From: Leptospiraceae bacterium
GTDB taxonomy: Bacteria; Spirochaetota; Leptospiria; Leptospirales; Leptonemataceae
NCBI GenBank assembly: GCA_020441025.1
Contig: JAGRMX010000001.1
Location: 1-38,152 of the forward strand
Length of the DNA stretch: 38,152 nucleotides
Direction of reading: 5' to 3'
In this document: positions 1 through 35,690 of the stretch, piece by piece
Layout of the letters: every line of letters starts with the position of its first letter
How positions within the stretch are numbered: the first letter of the stretch is position 1
Notes under the pieces: generated by a model
What the model saw: the letters and a program-made list of their open reading frames with translations, nothing else
Told to the model about the DNA's origin: nothing
Databases searched by the model: none
Made by a program: the position numbers and the translations under genes

Positions 1-139
1 GGCACACTCCATTGTGGGCCACGCTTTCATCCGGACGGAACTCGGCGGCCAGATTCGATTCAAAGCGATACACCGTATTTTCGCCGGAGGTCCATTTTTC
101 TTTGAGCAGTGCCTGGGTTTCAATGATTCCGGTAAACAT
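1..139 (-). CDS. ribE: Riboflavin synthase alpha chain, N-terminal fragment; the gene runs off the left edge
   Basis: The reverse complement of 1-139 reads MFTGIIETQALLKEKWTSGENTVYRFESNLAAEFRPDESVAHNGVC. The MFTGII start and the SVAHNGxC motif are the hallmark N-terminus of riboflavin synthase. It is absent from the ORF track because it is truncated. Confidence 0.8.
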   Translation of the reverse strand, partial: MFTGIIETQALLKEKWTSGENTVYRFESNLAAEFRPDESVAHNGVC

Positions 140-7628: not shown

Positions 7629-8303
7629 TTAACCTCCGAAACTGCCGCCGTGAATAAAGGCGCGCATATTCCGTTTCACTTCTTTTAACTGACGCGAGTC
7701 CGGTGTGGTGGTTTGATCATAAACACCGGTTACCAGCGCGGTGAGCAACATTTCAATCGCGCCAAAAAACGCGAAACTCAGCAGGCGCGTGTCCGCGTCT
7801 TTAGAAAGCTCTCCGCTGACGATGGCCGCTTGAAAAATATTTTCAATCTGTCCGATTATCCGCCGCACAATCTCCAATTGCGGTAAATCGGGAATATGAT
7901 GTGAGTGTACAATCTCGTGCACCAGAATCTTAATGATGTCCGGTCGAGCGATAAAGGTATCCAGCATGTAGTCCGAAATCTCCGCCAGTTTGTGGGTGGC
8001 CGGTATTTCCTGCGCGCTGATGCGGGCAATACGCTCGCCGAAACGCTCCCATAGATTTTCAAACAGGGAGGAAAGGATGTTCTCCTTGCTGCCGAAATAA
8101 TGATAAACCAGCCCATAAGCCACTCCGGCCTTCTCGGCAATGTCGGAGATGCGGGTATTGTGATAGCCGCGCTCCGCGATTACCTCAATGGCCGCCTGTA
8201 ATATGTCCGATTGGCGTTCCTGACGCTGCCGTCGCCGTAAAGACCCCGGAGGATTGTCCTGCTCCGGTTTTGGGCGCTTCCTGTCTGGCATGGGGCGGGC
8301 CAC
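7629..8303 (-). CDS. TetR/AcrR-family transcriptional regulator (FadR/YsiA-like by context)
   Basis: N-terminal HTH (ILQAAIEVIAERGYHNTRISDIAEKAGVAYGLVYHYFGSKENIL). It is the first gene of the tetR-acd-acd operon. The start is either the GTG at 8303 or the ATG at 8291. Confidence 0.85.
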   Translation of the reverse strand: MARPMPDRKRPKPEQDNPPGSLRRRQRQERQSDILQAAIEVIAERGYHNTRISDIAEKAGVAYGLVYHYFGSKENILSSLFENLWERFGERIARISAQEIPATHKLAEISDYMLDTFIARPDIIKILVHEIVHSHHIPDLPQLEIVRRIIGQIENIFQAAIVSGELSKDADTRLLSFAFFGAIEMLLTALVTGVYDQTTTPDSRQLKEVKRNMRAFIHGGSFGG

Positions 8304-8316
8304 AGCTTCGATTCCC

Positions 8317-8346
8317 GAAAGTTGATTGATTTGTCAATCAACTTTC
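8317..8346. promoter_or_regulatory. Putative TetR operator: perfect 13-bp inverted repeat with a 4-bp spacer
   Basis: GAAAGTTGATTGA (8317-8329), tttg, TCAATCAACTTTC (8334-8346). It lies 14 bp upstream of the tetR start. On the minus strand it contains TTGACA. Confidence 0.55.
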
Positions 8347-8387
8347 GCCCGTTTTGCGATCTCTGCGGAAAGGTTTTCAGCGGGCCC

Positions 8388-8453
8388 GGCTTGCGCGCTT
8401 TTCTTAAAAGGTTTTTCGCCGCTGTGGACTTTCGCCGATCACACGGTACATCC
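8388..8453. repeat. Partial repeat copy A1, matching the 5' part of repeat unit 2
   Basis: 64 of 66 nt are identical to 8809-8874. Identity ends exactly where the P2 loop apex lies in the full copy. Confidence 0.85.
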
Positions 8454-8486
8454 TGTTGCTCGCCTGGTTTGTACGCCTTATATATG

Positions 8487-8590
8487 GATTTCCGGAACGC
8501 AGAGTTTCCGCCGTCGACACGGTGCGTCCTGCACCGGGTCGACGTAAGCCCCGTCCGTGGAGCTTGACGTAAACTCTGTGTCCGGAAATC
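8487..8590. ncRNA. Candidate structured element H1 (three-way junction); transcribed strand unknown
   Basis: P1: 8487-8507 with 8571-8590. P2 outer: 8512-8518 with 8538-8544. P2 inner: 8520-8525 with 8531-8536, loop gtcct. P3: 8547-8552 with 8559-8564, loop gtccgt. Confidence 0.45.
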
Positions 8591-8774
8591 GACCGTACAC
8601 GCGCAAACAGACTCGCGGGGAAATGAGTGTGGGTGGTATGGGTGCTGATGTGCGGGGATAGTAATGTTTTTTTATATTCAGCGTGCGATTTGTCGGTTTG
8701 ATCCGATTCTCCGGCGCGGATTTTGCTATATTTGTACTATAATATGGGGCTGCCCAACCCCTCCCCCTACTTAC

Positions 8775-8783
8775 ATTATAGCA
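8775..8783 (-). promoter_or_regulatory. Possible extended -10 promoter element (TGCTATAAT) on the minus strand, in module B1
   Basis: The plus strand reads attatagca, so the minus strand reads TGCTATAAT, a perfect TGnTATAAT. An identical copy lies at 9104-9112 in B2. There is no convincing -35. Confidence 0.3.
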
Positions 8784-8797
8784 CGACCCTGTGACAC

Positions 8798-9127
8798 GTT
8801 GCTCGCCTGGCTCGCGCGCTTTTCTTAAAAAGTTTTTCGCCGCTGTGGACTTTCGCCGATCACACGGTACATCCGTGTACCGGGTGATCGGAGGCTCCGT
8901 CCCTGGAGCCTGACTCAATTCCACAGCGAGCGAAAAACTACAATCTGCGCGCAAGCAATCTCGCTGTGAATGCACGTTGGTGATATTGGTGCGTTAGTGC
9001 GGGGATAAAAATTCGTTTAACTATTTTCCCTGCGATTCTCTGGCGCGGATTTTGCTATATCTGTATTATAATATGGGGCTGCCCAACCCCTCCCCCTACT
9101 TACATTATAGCACGACCCTGTGACACG
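8798..9127. repeat. Tandem repeat unit 2 (junction 13-mer, fold H2, tail, 88-bp module B2)
   Basis: It starts with the same gttgctcgcctgg. Module B2 (9040-9127) is 85/88 identical to B1. Confidence 0.8.
8831..8939. ncRNA. Candidate structured element H2 (same three-way-junction architecture as H1)
   Basis: P1: 8831-8849 with 8920-8939. P2 outer: 8856-8863 with 8884-8891. P2 inner: 8865-8870 with 8877-8882, loop atccgt. P3: 8893-8898 with 8905-8910, loop gtccct. On the minus strand P1 is followed by TTTTT. Confidence 0.45.
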
Positions 9128-9212
9128 GTGCCGGCCGACAATGGATTCGCAAGTCGGGACGCATGTCGGGAATAAGCGTGGTATTACTGCGTTTGTGCGG
9201 ATAAAAAGTGAG

Positions 9213-9776
9213 TTACTCTTCTACAATCAGCGTAACTACGCGGCGGGCGCGATCATTGTTTTCCATGCTTTCGATATTGCGAACGCGCATGGTAGGCGGC
9301 GCCATATGCCGGGAATGCAGTTCACCATCGGGAGTAAGCATCCAGACCAATCGCACGTAGCCGCCGGCGGTTTGAAATCTAATATAGGCATGCACCTGCT
9401 CGGACCGCGAGCGACCGTACGTAATCCAATGGGCGCTGGTATCGGCCGCGACAATCTCACCTTCGCGTGGAGCGATGTGCCAGACTCCGCTCAATAACCC
9501 GGAAGCGCTGAGCGTTAAATTGGAGGCGGTTCTATTTACTATTACACAACGAACCGATCGTGCTCCGGCCATGGTGACTACCGGTGTTGAAGGCGATTCT
9601 TCGGTAGTCGCCGTTGGTTGTGTCCGGTTCTGCTCTTCGGTTGATTGGCAGCCGGTGACGGTGGCCATAAAAAACAGTCCGACAACGAATACGACCGGAG
9701 CGTGGTGTACATTCAAGCTGAAGATGGATTTCACCTTTACGATACTAAATCCTGAATGTGTTATCGACAAACCCAT
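9213..9776 (-). CDS. Hypothetical lipoprotein, beta-rich
   Basis: Lipobox FFMATVTG-C. A GTG at 9734 would give the cleaner signal peptide MKSIFSLNVHHAPVVFVVGLFFMATVTGC. No family is confidently recognised. Confidence 0.55.
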   Translation of the reverse strand: MGLSITHSGFSIVKVKSIFSLNVHHAPVVFVVGLFFMATVTGCQSTEEQNRTQPTATTEESPSTPVVTMAGARSVRCVIVNRTASNLTLSASGLLSGVWHIAPREGEIVAADTSAHWITYGRSRSEQVHAYIRFQTAGGYVRLVWMLTPDGELHSRHMAPPTMRVRNIESMENNDRARRVVTLIVEE

Positions 9777-10177
9777 TCCGATACGTGTACGGCCGTACCG
9801 CAGTATTCATTGCGGGTACCGGAGGTCGGCTGACAGGGGCCTACTTCCGTTTGCAACGTACCGGTAATCTGAACGTCCTGCGCGCAATCAATCGCATTGT
9901 TGCTGATGAAAATCCATTGGCCGAATTCGGTTTCCCAGTACGATTCGACTTTTTCAAATTGAGTAATGGGATGCTGTAGAACCATCTCCGGACGATGAGC
10001 GCTGAGGCGCACGGACTTCCCATTGCATTGCTGTAGTGCGTCCTTTTTCAGAGTACAGAATTCGTTTTGGGTTTCATTGCCTGCCTGGCAATGTGCAAAT
10101 AAAAACAATGCCACGCAGATACCCAAAGCCTTATGACGAAAGTTGTTTCTATTTGAACTTTTATAATTTATGCGCAT
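9761..10177 (-). CDS. Small secreted cysteine-containing protein (138 aa)
   Basis: The internal ATG at 10177 (MRINYKSS...) is preceded by AAGGAA. Signal peptide ALGICVALFLFAHCQA. The longer track ORF (to 10375) has an implausible N-terminus. Confidence 0.5.
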   Translation of the reverse strand: MRINYKSSNRNNFRHKALGICVALFLFAHCQAGNETQNEFCTLKKDALQQCNGKSVRLSAHRPEMVLQHPITQFEKVESYWETEFGQWIFISNNAIDCAQDVQITGTLQTEVGPCQPTSGTRNEYCGTAVHVSEWVCR

Positions 10178-10457
10178 GATTCGTTCCTTTCGTTCCGGAA
10201 AAAGTAGATATCCCTGATTGCCAAAACCGAGAAGAAGGCATTGTTTTGAGATGAGTTCTGAGCTTCGAGAGAAATTATGCGTCAAAATTTGTAAATCAAA
10301 TAACCGCTCTCTCGTGTGTGATTGCTTGATGGCAGCGATTTGAGCATGTTTATGATTTGAATCAGCCCGGCGCAAACATGAAATGATTGCTCACAGAATA
10401 CCGGAATTGCATATGATACCGGCCATTATAACAGACCACTATAACAGAGGTACAATT

Positions 10458-24834: not shown

Positions 24835-24955
24835 GCGTCGACTCCTGGATATTAAAACTAACAGGAAGCATCGGCGCGACCATCGGTCAAGAATAACTGA
24901 GAATTGTTATTAATTGATGTATTTTTTAATCCTGTAGATTAATACATTTTATAAT

Positions 24956-25001
24956 GGAATGAACAGTGGAAATGCATTTGCGAGTATCCACTGTTCATTC
25001 C
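24956..25001 (-). terminator. Strong hairpin downstream of the DUF1566 gene
   Basis: Perfect 14-bp stem: ggaatgaacagtgg (24956-24969) pairs with ccactgttcattcc (24988-25001) across an 18-nt loop. An AT-rich tract follows on the minus strand. Confidence 0.5.
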
Positions 25002-25036
25002 GTTTTAAGCTCCGCTTGTTGCGATTTCCGCGCCAA

Positions 25037-26506
25037 TCAGTTGCGAACGCAACGCACATACATGCCGTCTTCGCCGTTTCCATCCCGGAGAATATCGCCC
25101 TGCGGTCCCCAGTAGAAAAAGGTTCCGAAACCCACATTGGCGGAAGCGGCGCCGCCTTTTGTGGAAACGTCGTCCTTATCGTCGCTGCGCTGCGATCCGG
25201 CGCCATGTACATCCTGCACTGAATTTAGATAATACCCCAGGGCTCTTCCGAAGGCCATATAAGCGCCGGAAGTCACATCATCCGTTCCGCCGCAAGTGCT
25301 GGAGGCGTTATCACACGCTACATGCGTGGTGGAGGACCAATAGGTGGCATAATCGGTTATGCCTTCTTCATTTGTAAATGAAGTGGCGTTAAAAATGGAA
25401 TTAATAGCCGCCGAGCCCGTATAATCCGGTGCGCGGGAATAATCCAGAATACTCTGCAACTCTTTAATGTTCGGTACGCGCCAGTTTGATGATCCACCGA
25501 GGGAAAGACCTTCGCAATAGGTCAGGGCCTGGTCGAAGGTGCGTGAAGTTCCGCTGTCGCCCTGCTGCCAGGTCAGTCCGGTCGCGTTATCCGTAATCGT
25601 ACCGTTGCCGTTATTGGTGAAGTTATTCAATCCGTAATCTGAGTTTCCTCGCACACATTGTACGTAAAAGGTCTTTGTGGAATTGCATTCGTACCCCTTG
25701 ATGCGACCATCCACAAAGTTCACCCCAAAAACACCCGTATCCGTATCAAAGATTTTGCCGCCATAAACGTTGGTGGAAGCGTATTGCCCGTCGATCAATC
25801 GCTCTCCGGAGGAAGTGTCGCCAAAGCCGACGCTGAAGACGGAGTCATCCATGAAGGTTTTTCCGCTCAGGTTGCCGGAAGCGCAATTCGTACAGGAACT
25901 CGGATCGCGTCCCTGACCAAAGTTCATTAATGAATAGAGCTCTTTCACCGTAGGCAATCGCCAATCACTATGACCGGCATACGTTAACGATGAGCAATAT
26001 GAAACGGCGGAAGACTGAGTTAGCTTGTCGCTGGAATTGATCGAACTATCGCCGTTCGTATCAGCCGAGTTAACCCACATTAGACTCGTGCGATTGTCCG
26101 TGATGGTGCCGTCCGCATTGTTGGTATAGCTCGGCGTATTGCCGGTATAAAAACCGTCCTGTGCCGCCGTGCCGCCACCCGAACACCCCACCGTGCCGCT
26201 ATTGGTGCCGTAGCAGGTGGTCTGACCCGTATCCACAAGGGTATAGTTGCCCGTACTGGTGGTCGTTGTAATACTTTGCACCTGATAGCTGCATCCGTCG
26301 CTGCTGCTGGAAGTTGTGGATAGCAGCAGCAGCGCCAATAACTGAGTCGAATCGTCGTCGTCTTCATCCGTAAGGCCCAATAGATCGCATCCCGCTATGG
26401 ACACAGTCACTGAGAGCGTTGCACTTAAAAGCAGGCGTGGAAGCCAGGTCGATATGAATTCGATTCTTTCGCCCGGGTTCAGTATTTTAGGTTTCATCTG
26501 ATTCAC
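25037..26506 (-). CDS. DUF1566 (Lcl C-terminal domain) lipoprotein, two domain copies
   Basis: Lipobox VSIAG-C. The signatures DWRLPTVKELYSL and NWRVPNIKELQSIL are diagnostic of DUF1566. Confidence 0.85.
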   Translation of the reverse strand: MNQMKPKILNPGERIEFISTWLPRLLLSATLSVTVSIAGCDLLGLTDEDDDDSTQLLALLLLSTTSSSSDGCSYQVQSITTTTSTGNYTLVDTGQTTCYGTNSGTVGCSGGGTAAQDGFYTGNTPSYTNNADGTITDNRTSLMWVNSADTNGDSSINSSDKLTQSSAVSYCSSLTYAGHSDWRLPTVKELYSLMNFGQGRDPSSCTNCASGNLSGKTFMDDSVFSVGFGDTSSGERLIDGQYASTNVYGGKIFDTDTGVFGVNFVDGRIKGYECNSTKTFYVQCVRGNSDYGLNNFTNNGNGTITDNATGLTWQQGDSGTSRTFDQALTYCEGLSLGGSSNWRVPNIKELQSILDYSRAPDYTGSAAINSIFNATSFTNEEGITDYATYWSSTTHVACDNASSTCGGTDDVTSGAYMAFGRALGYYLNSVQDVHGAGSQRSDDKDDVSTKGGAASANVGFGTFFYWGPQGDILRDGNGEDGMYVRCVRN

Positions 26507-33437: not shown

Positions 33438-35690
33438 ATGAGCAGGGCGGACGCGGAAAAATTTTATAATGAAGGTGTGGTGCTCGCTAATGAAGGCAAG
33501 CTGCGTGAAGCGCTGGCGGCATTTGATGAAGCGATTCGATTGGATAAGGATTTTGGGTTTTCGCACAATGGCCGGGGTAATGTTTTGTTCTGTTTGGCAT
33601 TTTATGAAGAGGCACTGGCGGCGTATGAAAATGCAATTCGATTGAATAAAGGTGATTCACTTCCTCATAACGGTCGCGGTAACGCATTGCTTTACCTGAG
33701 GTGTTATGAAGAAGCTCTGGTGGCCTTTGACGAAGCGATTCGTTTGGCTAAAGATTCTGCGCATCCTCATAACGGTCGCGGCAACGCATTGCTTGAGCTA
33801 AGGCGATCTGAAGAAGCTCTGGCGGCCTTTGATAAAGCGATTTGCCTGGATAAAGATTTTACGCACGCTTATAATGGTCGCGGCAATGCTTTGTTCGAAC
33901 TGAGTCGATATGAAGAAGCGCTTAAAGCATATGAAGAAGCGCTCCGTTTGGACAGGGAAAATGCGCATTCATACAATGGTCGCGGAAATGTTTTGTGTGA
34001 ACTAAACCGGCATGACGAAGCGCTCAGTGCATATGCTGAGGCTATCAAATTGGATTCTAATTTTCCGCTTCCCTGGTTAAATCTGGCCATCCTGTCCCGA
34101 AACATAGACGCAGGCTACAACACCGAACAGTGTCTCTATCGCTACTATTATTTAGAAGATAGAAGTATCCCGGGGGTAAAGTTTCAGATTTTTATCCAAT
34201 TCTTTGAGTATCAATTGTATGCGCCGTTGTTCGTATATCGACTCTTTCAGGAGTATGAGGAGTATCAAACCTTTCTTCAGTATGGGAATCTGATTCAGAC
34301 AACCCTGCAACAGTGTGCGGACGCCCTGTCGTTGATTGAGTATCTGGAATCGGATGCCTGCTCGCTGGATGCGATCGCACGAAAAAAATTACACGCCTTA
34401 ATTCGGTTTCACCTCGGCGATCCGTTTTACGCCCGACAGCTGTACGACCATGTGCTGGAAAGCAACGCGGATGATCTATGTGCGCATTACGGGCGAATCG
34501 GTTGCCTGTTTATGTACCTGGCCGACAATGAACTCGATTCGGCTTACGAGCAGGCCATGCAGGCCATGACTCGTTTGGGGGCCCGTGAATCGGATGATCG
34601 GCAGCCTGTCGAATACTATTATGCCGGACTGATAATGTATGAATGTGCTCCTGACAGTGTTGATAATCCGAGCGCGCGCGGAGTTTACCAGTCGGCGCTG
34701 GCTTACTTTGAAAAAGCGGGCGATTATTTGCCGGCGCTCTACATGCGCGCGTTGATGCTTGTGCTGTCGGACCGGAAACCCGAAGCGATTGAAATATATG
34801 GAGCCATTCTGAAAGAGGAGCGATTATTAAGGGCCGGCAATCAGCATGGCGGCTATCTATGCGGAGTTTCGGTCTGGGACATCGATTTTGATGATCCCGA
34901 ATTCCAATTGCCGTTTTATCACTATGCGCATGCTATCGAGATTTCCGAAGCGCTGGTTGTTTTGTTTGAATGGCTGGAGGAATGGGCCGACCCGATCGAT
35001 CATAAACTTGCGCAGGAGTTTCGAAATTTTCTCAAGCGGCATCCGATACAATTAAATAAAGAAACGCGATTGAATGCAAGCTGGCGGTTTACCGAGCACA
35101 CGAAGCAAAAATTAGCGCGGCTGAAAGAAATCGATATTGAGCAAAAGCTGGAAATTCTCGCGGTTCATTTGAGTCAATCTTTCCCCGCATGGGCAGAATT
35201 TCTGGAGCAAAACCCGGATCAAATCGCCCGGAGCCTGGGCCGGAGCATTCAGAATAAAGAACAGGAGGCGCTCGCTTATCATCGAATGATCGTTTATCTG
35301 TACGCCCGAGGAAAGTTGCCGGAACGGACCGCCGTTCTATTGCTGTTCTATTCGTTGATGACCCAATCGCCCCGGGAAATATTTAAGATAGGCCGGGCCG
35401 CGTTTTTCGGGCTGGCCTCGGAAATCTTTATGGAATATACCCTGGGTTCGGTGCTCGCGCAGACCGGGTTGCTGTTGCCGGGAGGATTGATTGGCATCGG
35501 AGTATTTATAATGTTTATGGAATTTGTGAAGAAAAGGTCGGATCAAAAGTCCGAAGTCATCGAATTTCGTGCATTCAAAGCGAATTTTCTCGCGTTTATC
35601 GAGCGGCGCAGGGTACAATTGGGTGCGGCATTCAGTGAAAAATACCCCATGGACAATCCGGAACGGTGGCTGGAGCAGTTAATGGATTGA
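33438..35690 (+). CDS. TPR-repeat protein with a long uncharacterised helical region and C-terminal TM helices
   Basis: Six near-consensus 34-aa TPR units (HNGRGNALxxLxRYEEALxAFDEAIRLDKD) are followed by about 470 aa of unknown sequence. Hydrophobic helices lie near the C-terminus (LLLPGGLIGIGVFIMFMEF). The start is uncertain: 33348, 33438, or the track TTG at 33261. Confidence 0.75.
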   Translation: MSRADAEKFYNEGVVLANEGKLREALAAFDEAIRLDKDFGFSHNGRGNVLFCLAFYEEALAAYENAIRLNKGDSLPHNGRGNALLYLRCYEEALVAFDEAIRLAKDSAHPHNGRGNALLELRRSEEALAAFDKAICLDKDFTHAYNGRGNALFELSRYEEALKAYEEALRLDRENAHSYNGRGNVLCELNRHDEALSAYAEAIKLDSNFPLPWLNLAILSRNIDAGYNTEQCLYRYYYLEDRSIPGVKFQIFIQFFEYQLYAPLFVYRLFQEYEEYQTFLQYGNLIQTTLQQCADALSLIEYLESDACSLDAIARKKLHALIRFHLGDPFYARQLYDHVLESNADDLCAHYGRIGCLFMYLADNELDSAYEQAMQAMTRLGARESDDRQPVEYYYAGLIMYECAPDSVDNPSARGVYQSALAYFEKAGDYLPALYMRALMLVLSDRKPEAIEIYGAILKEERLLRAGNQHGGYLCGVSVWDIDFDDPEFQLPFYHYAHAIEISEALVVLFEWLEEWADPIDHKLAQEFRNFLKRHPIQLNKETRLNASWRFTEHTKQKLARLKEIDIEQKLEILAVHLSQSFPAWAEFLEQNPDQIARSLGRSIQNKEQEALAYHRMIVYLYARGKLPERTAVLLLFYSLMTQSPREIFKIGRAAFFGLASEIFMEYTLGSVLAQTGLLLPGGLIGIGVFIMFMEFVKKRSDQKSEVIEFRAFKANFLAFIERRRVQLGAAFSEKYPMDNPERWLEQLMD
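33453..34064 (+). repeat. 102-bp-period coding tandem repeat (the TPR units)
   Basis: Successive 102-nt blocks beginning cataacggtcgcgg(t/c)aacgcattgctt... are visibly similar at the DNA level. Confidence 0.7.

Follow-up and report, generated by a model that had tools for sequence, protein, structure and literature searches.

In the stretch of DNA analysed here (positions 1 to 38,152 of contig JAGRMX010000001.1, assembly GCA_020441025.1, from a Leptospiraceae bacterium; in the following called the window), the gap between a tetR gene and a gene for a protein of 187 amino acids (aa) is filled by repeated, palindromic DNA. We consider it probable that this gap holds two tandem copies, together with fragments, of a gene for a structured noncoding RNA of about 290 nucleotides (nt), which is encoded on the minus strand and belongs to the TwoAYGGAY family (Rfam RF01731) or is a divergent relative of it. 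The gene would have been duplicated in tandem with each copy being promoted independently, and the RNA would probably clamp dimers of CsrA. What is new here is a divergent, sub-threshold relative of a known orphan RNA family, with a new host group, a tandem arrangement and a constant module that bears a predicted promoter; it is not a new kind of element. An earlier note on this DNA had proposed duplicated structured RNA genes with a divergent core. Strong covariation and a near-threshold match to RF01731 bear this out, whereas the family and the strand had gone unrecognised.

The gap extends from the start of tetR at 8303 (or from an ATG at 8291) to the stop codon of the 187-aa gene at 9213. 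Positions 8384-9212 contain a 70-nt partial copy, two full units of 343 and 330 nt (A and B) and a decayed tail of 85 nt (Table 1). Two full units, a truncated copy and a remnant at the right end had been described before, and all of them were recovered by repeat search and alignment; the repeats are real, though to call two full units plus fragments an array was overstated. The repeat search returned the constant modules as a 104-nt family with 94% identity at a spacing of 329, and a 70-nt family (8384-8453 and 8805-8874) with 96% identity at a spacing of 421. The motif TGCGGGGATAAAAA is present three times, at 8651, 8998 and, in the right-hand tail, at 9194. The tail aligns with the segment that comes after the hairpin in the units (in plus-strand order), and its motif TGTGCGGATAAAAA at 9194-9207 is a member of repeat family D3. 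Aligned over their whole length, units A and B are 69% identical. Their conservation is mosaic, as the earlier note had stated: within this alignment the constant module reaches 96% identity, while the interior, for which about 70% had been estimated, reaches 57%, with gaps in 24 columns. That the array escaped Tandem Repeats Finder is in line with the program's stated limit of about 70% identity between copies. Probes of 20-25 nt from both conserved modules found no further site in the 38-kb window (0.00 expected from shuffles), and the gap shows no unusual base composition. Unit B, the tail and the junction with the constant module are also present in an ENA contig that was assembled independently (L001). 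A Logan contig (L003), from a strain that is nearly identical (99% identity in TetR), confirms the start of the partial copy, of which it has a diverged version at its end. L001 and L003 both break off within the repeats; for unit A and the order partial copy-A-B, the window is the only source.

Each unit contains a long hairpin (Y hairpin) whose end branches, at a three-way junction, into two short hairpins. The hairpins mentioned in the earlier note are confirmed by folding against shuffled sequences, which gave z = -7.3 for unit B and z = -3.2 for unit A. Further copies were obtained by using a spurious 165-aa open reading frame (ORF) of the gap as protein query, which led to two spurious ORFs on short ENA contigs (L005 and L006) whose plus strands correspond to the minus strand of the window. 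The alignment took in four full and two partial units. Read along the minus strand, a unit starts with the constant module, continues with an A/T-rich stretch and a moderately conserved segment, and ends with the Y hairpin and the end motif GAAAAACYTTTTAAGAAAAGCGCGC...GGCGAGCAAC. A GC-rich outer stem, P0, encloses the hairpin and a U-rich stretch, and shows a compensatory change from C-G to U-A between the window and L005. In the leader, the only additional conserved hairpin is a small 5' stem.

Four hairpins were compared: A and B from the window, B' from L005 and C from L006. They have 38 base pairs in common, with 98.7% of the cells paired. At 17 of these 38 pairs both sides have changed, compared to 5.9 ± 1.7 pairs in shuffles (0 of 500 reached 17) and 1-3 pairs in a control in which the partners were slid. 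Hairpin C is unlike B in all three stems, its shape being unchanged. A covariance model built from the four hairpins scores hairpin A with 116.8 bits on the minus strand, by construction, since A is part of the training set; it found no further match in the window or in any fetched locus.

On L005 the RF01731 model matched over its full length with 42.7 bits, on the strand that corresponds to the minus strand of the window; the E-value of 2.9e-5 refers to 1091 bases, with L005 and L006 scanned together on both strands against all 4227 families. In the window it matched 8817-8954, on the minus strand only and again over the full model length, with 36.6 bits and an E-value of 1.2e-4 (scan of the 181 bases 8795-8975). 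An Rfam scan of the whole window at default gathering thresholds and a scan of the 1-kb region had given no match; as the match appeared once short stretches were scanned, we regard these earlier negatives as filter losses. The apical loops of A and B are listed in Table 1, C has AGGAG and AGGAA, and AGGGAU is also found. The minus-strand reading CA(N)GGANG is common to all eight apical loops, on stems that differ by up to about half of their bases; GGA is present in 8/8 loops and strict AYGGAY in 3/8 (alignments). The consensus fold is more favourable for the minus strand (-56.4 kcal/mol, 38 pairs) than for the plus strand (-45.9 kcal/mol, 35 pairs), as are the summed single-sequence energies (-266.8 versus -254.0), and U.G wobbles in B' and C become C.A mismatches if read on the plus strand.

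Each full hairpin has its own promoter-like box about 190 nt upstream in minus-strand orientation. The constant module is laid out as GTGTCACAGGGTCG-TGnTATAAT, followed by 6-7 variable bases and the invariant GGGGAGGGGTT. TGnTATAAT is kept in six of six module variants, with n being C, G or A, while the next 6-7 nt vary (other module variants carry TGGTATAAT and TGATATAAT); a purine 7 or 8 bases downstream of the box is kept as well. In the whole window TGnTATAAT occurs only three times. Its third occurrence (10433, minus strand) precedes the start of the next gene on that strand by about 50 nt and lies within a 13-nt tandem duplication at 10423-10448 (CCACTATAACAGA twice), where it reads TGTTATAAT (10433-10425); it is likely the promoter of a two-gene orphan operon, whose 204-aa ORF starts at 10375. 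An intrinsic terminator that would convince was found on neither strand, the U-tract after P1 being located in the internal loop of P0. This fits the pattern in L. interrogans, where most small RNAs have no intrinsic terminator (PMC5243855).

The loop sequences suggested CsrA as partner of the RNA before the family was found. The P2 hairpin of B, GUACACGGAUGU, matches 11 of the 12 positions of RUACARGGAUGU, the consensus for E. coli CsrA from systematic evolution of ligands by exponential enrichment (SELEX) as quoted in PMC8668096. In Leptospira, CsrA binds a GGA hexaloop in the flaB leaders, fliW adjoins csrA, and homologues of csrB and csrC are lacking (PMC8668096). TwoAYGGAY itself was judged in 2010 to be probably an RNA and probably not cis-regulatory (PMC2864571). 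It is also a predicted small RNA ligand of CsrA, with two matches to the motif, CsrA sites being paired since CsrA is a dimer (PMC4333381), and a 2026 preprint on Pseudomonas TwoAYGGAY repeats the proposal of CsrA binding (bioRxiv 10.64898/2026.09.22.753630). In the units studied here, conserved GGA is confined to the two apical loops, the 5' G-tract and one junction site (alignment).

In the mechanism that we propose, each copy would be transcribed from its own promoter, the extended -10 box within the 104-nt constant module. The RNA would begin with the invariant G-rich 5' end, followed by an A/U-rich leader and the long stem P0-P1, which would be capped by the three-way junction with hairpins P3 and P2, presenting CA(N)GGANG loops about 28 nt apart. 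The two GGA loops may then be clamped by a single CsrA dimer, such that the RNA, as a low-valency binder, would titrate CsrA off its mRNA targets in the manner of the Csr/Rsm sponge RNAs; duplication would provide a higher dose. We infer transcription, the RNA ends and CsrA binding from the sequence. That these are genuine CsrA-titrating small RNAs of a spirochaete-type lineage, with their own promoters and amplified by tandem duplication, is a tentative proposal, which in our estimate is possible but rather doubtful.

Several observations weigh against the reading as TwoAYGGAY-type RNA genes on the minus strand. Compensatory changes in a DNA palindrome can also arise via template-switch correction without selection on an RNA. 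The scores of 36.6 and 42.7 bits do not reach the Rfam gathering cut-off (43 bits), and RF01731 fails to match hairpins A and C at E<=10; the homology of these two to the B-type hairpins is suggested by our own alignment. Strict AYGGAY is found in just two of the four window loops. The 35 pairs predicted for both strands show no strand preference, which leaves the family match and the loops as the main strand evidence, and one G.U pair in unit A favours the plus strand. Promoter and strand are sequence-based predictions, and a sigma-54-like box on the opposite strand faces the minus-strand TGnTATAAT. Concerning CsrA, GGA is not enriched over the region (16 seen versus 16.6 expected in 909 nt), such that the locus is not a dense sponge of the CsrB type. 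The window holds no csrA gene, and CsrA binding by TwoAYGGAY RNAs is a literature prediction only (PMC4333381).

The sigma-54-like box bears on a different explanation, in which a functional RNA is made from the plus strand, driven by this box, and its UCC loops and CCCCUCCCC tract pair with the Shine-Dalgarno sequences of target mRNAs. The consensus of the sigma-54 -24/-12 elements is TGGCACG-N4-TTGCW. The box in module B, TGGCGCG-GATT-TTGCT at 9041-9056, agrees with it at all but one position, and module A carries CGGCGCG-GATT-TTGCT at 8712-8727. GG and TTGC are invariant in 6/6 module variants, and a loose form of the pattern has no further match in the window. In Leptospira, the conservation of sigma-54 promoters is good (PMC5243855), and the G.U pair internal to hairpin A speaks for the plus strand as well. 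A plus-strand RNA is, however, contradicted by the family match, which is confined to the minus strand, and folding is more favourable on the minus strand. Most loops (AUCCGU, GUCCCU) are ill suited to pair with Shine-Dalgarno sequences, but make good A(N)GGA sites on the minus strand. Furthermore, hairpin A would be left without an upstream promoter module, module B would drive the tail only, and the window contains no gene for an enhancer-binding protein. The box may instead drive an antisense transcript: the predicted starts converge at a distance of about 30 nt, and the 5' ends of the two RNAs could overlap by about 30 nt. Altogether, we consider a functional plus-strand RNA improbable.

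The fragments that accompany the two minus-strand units inform about the behaviour of the DNA. The partial copy starts exactly between A and GGA in the apical loop of P2 (minus strand). The truncated copy of the earlier note is present, with its nature corrected to the 3' half of a B-type hairpin plus end motif, cut at the apex of a small hairpin. On L006 an independent half-hairpin starts at the same point and is preceded by unrelated sequence. In the tail 9128-9212 the leader runs to the base of the hairpin and from there straight into the constant module, with the hairpin missing. The description of the locus as recombination-prone fits these findings, given two independent half-hairpins that break at the same loop apex and a tail that lacks exactly the hairpin. 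Long DNA palindromes are prone to apex breaks and to clean loss of the palindrome, and we read the fragments as decay products of this kind: the palindromic DNA would be unstable, with copies that break at the hairpin apex or lose the hairpin and thereby leave fragments. On L005 (positions 1-77, plus strand) the units border on a stretch that the window lacks and that includes a small stem, ATCGC...GCGAT. The repeat family may accordingly have a second locus, or its surroundings may differ in another strain.

The same observations also suit the main rival of our reading, in which the locus is selfish or neutral repeated palindromic DNA that spreads like a mobile element, with a functionless RNA and stems kept by template-switch correction. 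In Pseudomonas, TwoAYGGAY is multi-copy (median 11-23, maximum 202), shows truncation of copies and repeats at the flanks, and is enriched in doublets, which has been read as mobile-element-like expansion (bioRxiv 10.64898/2026.09.22.753630). Here, the fragments with their apical breakpoints, the short contigs that end inside the repeat and the L005 flank, as second locus or variable context, agree with such a view. Template switching cannot, however, maintain unpaired loops, and the unpaired loop motifs are kept in 8/8 cases. Moreover, the promoter-like box travels with each unit. There are no constant terminal inverted repeats, no target-site duplications at the four hairpin borders, no transposase or recombinase in 38 kb and no other copy in the window, neither by sequence nor by covariance model. 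We therefore hold purely selfish or neutral DNA to be unlikely, noting that repeated palindromic DNA is compatible with RNA function. The earlier note had remarked on the absence of terminal inverted repeats, of a transposase and of a CRISPR-like (clustered regularly interspaced short palindromic repeats) periodicity, with which the repeat and domain scans agree.

Searches for copies elsewhere gave no hit. The patterns CACGGTN{8,12}ACCGGGTN{9,13}CCGTCCNTGGA (hairpin core) and AACCCCTCCCCNTRCTTN{2,3}ATTATA were found 0 times in genome and metagenome contigs, the related core ACCGGGTN{5,12}CCGTCCNTGGAGC and the constant-module probe GGGGCTGCCCAACCCCTCCCCC 0 times in viral contigs, and BLASTN against plasmids and phages returned no match. 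Three protein matches to the spurious ORF (P0124-P0126) were rejected as repetitive translations that aligned via many repeated stretches; for P0126, which was looked up, the source chromosome is without DNA similarity and presumably eukaryotic.

Other kinds of element were considered and rejected. An origin as miniature inverted-repeat transposable element (MITE) or other transposon-derived repeat is at odds with stem arms that differ between copies, the lack of direct repeats at the hairpin borders and the lack of another copy in the window. An integron attC array would not have stem bases of GCGCGC / GCGCGC plus GATTTYCG / CGRAAATC, and R''/R' boxes (RYYYAAC ... GTTRRRY) with their AAC/GTT are missing, as is an integrase. 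For a CRISPR array there is neither a 24-48-nt repeat/spacer periodicity nor any cas gene. A tRNA-like element was dismissed as ARAGORN found 0 genes. Templates of a reverse transcriptase, i.e. a retron or a UG27-type array of noncoding RNAs with conserved structure and diverse sequence, are close to excluded: an array of structurally alike, sequence-divergent units would suit them, but no reverse transcriptase or accessory gene was found among the scanned ORFs of at least 150 aa, the units measure about 330 nt compared to about 150 nt for UG27, the hairpin matches a different family (RF01731), and the gene content is ordinary chromosomal and not that of a prophage.

Table 1. Positions of the repeat units and their structural parts in the window
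Feature	Position	Strand	Description
Orphan half-hairpin	8384..8453	-	3' half of B-type Y hairpin (P2-loop GGA onward) and end motif GAAAAACCTTTTAAGAAAAGCGCGC; no 5' partner
Unit A, 343 nt	8455..8797	-	constant module, leader, Y hairpin A, end motif (in this order); from alignment and fold
Y hairpin A	8486..8590	-	P1 8486-8507 / 8571-8590; P2 8512-8544, loop AGGAC; P3 8546-8565, loop ACGGAC
Constant module A	8704..8807	-	extended -10 box TGCTATAAT 8783-8775; predicted start ~8768; invariant GGGGAGGGGTT 8766-8756
Unit B, 330 nt	8798..9127	-	constant module, leader, Y hairpin B, end motif (in this order); fold z = -7.3
Structured domain B	8810..8956	-	P0 8810-8819 / 8947-8956; P1 8831-8849 / 8920-8939
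Structured domain B, hairpins		-	P2 8856-8891, loop ACGGAU closed by C-G; P3 8892-8911, loop AGGGAC
Constant module B	9033..9136	-	extended -10 box TGCTATAAT 9112-9104; predicted start ~9097; invariant GGGGAGGGGTT 9095-9085
Tail	9128..9212	-	decayed leader fragment of a further unit, without constant module and hairpin; abuts stop codon of the 187-aa gene

With regard to coding potential, the minus-strand ORF at 8478-8975 (165 aa), whose composition had been called implausible, does exist; it has no Pfam match, and its only true database relatives are spurious ORFs across other repeat copies. Shorter frames fared no better. The leader ORFs of 12-13 aa were rejected since their frame changes in the tail, and a 16-aa ORF of the constant module since it is not kept in other copies. 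A 15-aa ORF (MYRVIGESPQRRKTF; 8404-8451 and 8825-8872, minus strand) starts at an AUG in the P2 loop. It is present in the partial copy and in unit B and, with two substitutions, on L005; since its stop is out of frame in L003, it probably does not code for a peptide. A type I toxin-antitoxin system was rejected after enumeration of all small ORFs, none of which is hydrophobic and none conserved in frame across copies.

The surroundings of the gap have ordinary chromosomal gene content. One flank carries the TetR regulator and two acyl-CoA dehydrogenases, the other two ORFs without Pfam domains, followed by an aldolase and an acyl-CoA synthetase-type enzyme; signalling proteins, an Lcl_C protein and ankyrin and TPR proteins lie further out. 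Domain scans of the 38 kb (for reverse transcriptase, of ORFs of at least 150 aa) found no transposase, integrase, recombinase, reverse transcriptase or cas gene. The named TetR homologues come from metagenome-assembled genomes of Leptospirales, Leptospiraceae and Leptonema with 43-60% identity, the closest matches having 64-67%; a Leptospirales-like bacterium with a GC content of about 52% is accordingly the probable host. The two ORFs without Pfam domains overlap on the minus strand (9213-9776, 187 aa; 9761-10375, 204 aa). The 187-aa protein has a lipoprotein-type signal (…FFMATVTGC); a search of 5.8 billion proteins returned no homologue, only its identical copies from two short contigs. 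Two further repeats lie at a distance from the gap. A 102-nt tandem repeat at 33603-33919 (3.1 copies, 78% matches) is located inside the gene of an 809-aa TPR protein and represents ordinary TPR units. A 22-nt inverted repeat at 24949-25008 (91% complementary, 16-nt loop) lies in a 0.9-kb gap about 30 nt past the stop of the Lcl_C-domain gene (25037-26506, minus strand) and looks like a terminator.

In yet another explanation, suggested by their position, the units would serve the tetR-acd-acd operon immediately downstream in cis, as a long leader or promoter region. They share their strand with tetR, from which unit A is separated by no terminator-like site. At 8316-8347 there is a perfect inverted repeat of 14 nt (CGAAAGTTGATTGA-tttg-TCAATCAACTTTCG) that lies 13-44 nt upstream of the tetR start, is kept in L003 and looks by its sequence like a TetR operator; a terminator and promoter search and inspection by eye revealed no convincing sigma-70 promoter beside it, which would suit a promoter within the units. 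A tie to tetR-acd-acd is not supported, however. This operon is kept by two relatives with complete chromosomes (TetR 64% identical), where the sequence upstream of tetR is limited to 88 bp and 211 bp and contains no related Y hairpin, and where the neighbouring gene is a different one. Unit B is more than 500 nt away from tetR and has its own promoter box, and the L005 units abut unrelated sequence. Since, in addition, the discoverers of the family judged it probably not cis-regulatory (PMC2864571), we deem a leader function very improbable.

If transcribed as we propose, the two units would matter in several respects. TwoAYGGAY has been a widespread structured RNA of unknown function since 2010, its role with CsrA being a prediction. 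The locus adds a divergent lineage whose variation is unusually informative, with three stem sets that differ in sequence and share the same loops, and the promoter-like box fixes the likely strand and transcription unit. The fragments document palindrome decay by apex breaks and hairpin loss, which bears on the copy-number dynamics of the family. The host group is not known to possess an RNA antagonist of its CsrA, which binds GGA hexaloops; to our knowledge, the lineage is thought to control CsrA solely via the protein antagonist FliW. If these are CsrA-titrating RNAs, the orphan family would gain a function, and RNA sponges would be seen to operate alongside FliW in a group other than the Gammaproteobacteria. 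Without expression of the RNA, the locus would be one more palindromic repeat.

Among known systems, repetitive extragenic palindromic (REP) and MITE-like elements resemble the locus in being intergenic, palindromic and repeated, with fragments and with contigs that break there. They differ in that the stems here vary with compensation, without conserved terminal repeats, target-site duplications or another copy in the 38 kb. The reverse complement of Bacillaceae-1 RNA (RF01690) provides two adjacent GGA-loop hairpins opposite to the strand of the Rfam model and is a predicted CsrA binder (PMC4333381). Hairpins A and C match RF01690 weakly in this opposite orientation, at chance level (13.6-14.6 bits, E 1.6-2.8, cut-off 35), and the family has no long basal stem. 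The Csr/Rsm sponges (CsrB, CsrC, RsmX/Y/Z) likewise display GGA in hairpin loops closed by C-G within the wider consensus CA(N)GGANG, and the loop distance of about 28 nt in the units suits binding by a CsrA dimer. Among rsm genes, duplication in tandem is known as well. Unlike these sponges, the RNA proposed here has about 2-4 conserved GGA per roughly 290 nt without overall enrichment, has no intrinsic terminator and gives no Rfam match to any Csr/Rsm family at E<=10.

TwoAYGGAY is the closest of the known families. Its Pseudomonadota versions are extended by 5' GMTBT(T) arrays, extra hairpins and a 3' pseudoknot (bioRxiv 10.64898/2026.09.22.753630), whereas GMTBT repeats are missing here (0 in the 200 nt upstream of each hairpin versus 0.6-0.8 expected) and each copy comes with a 104-nt constant module including a promoter-like box. 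The doublet is tandem with a period of 329-343 nt, compared to Pseudomonas, where 68% of the doublets are divergent. One half of the loops deviates, either as pentaloops (AGGAC, AGGAG, AGGAA) or by a purine in place of Y, and the host is Leptospirales-like, while the original report covered human gut samples, Gammaproteobacteria and Clostridiales (PMC2864571). In common with the family, the units are intergenic and not tied to one downstream gene, being absent beside the same operon in relatives and having a different flank on L005. The close doublet, the truncated copies and the flanking repeats recall the situation in Pseudomonas (bioRxiv 10.64898/2026.09.22.753630), and the elongated basal stem resembles the Bacillota versions. 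The fold of the family, a long basal stem that leads to two sequential hairpins, is found in all four hairpins, with loops centred on GGA (among them ACGGAU, ACGGAC and AGGGAC).

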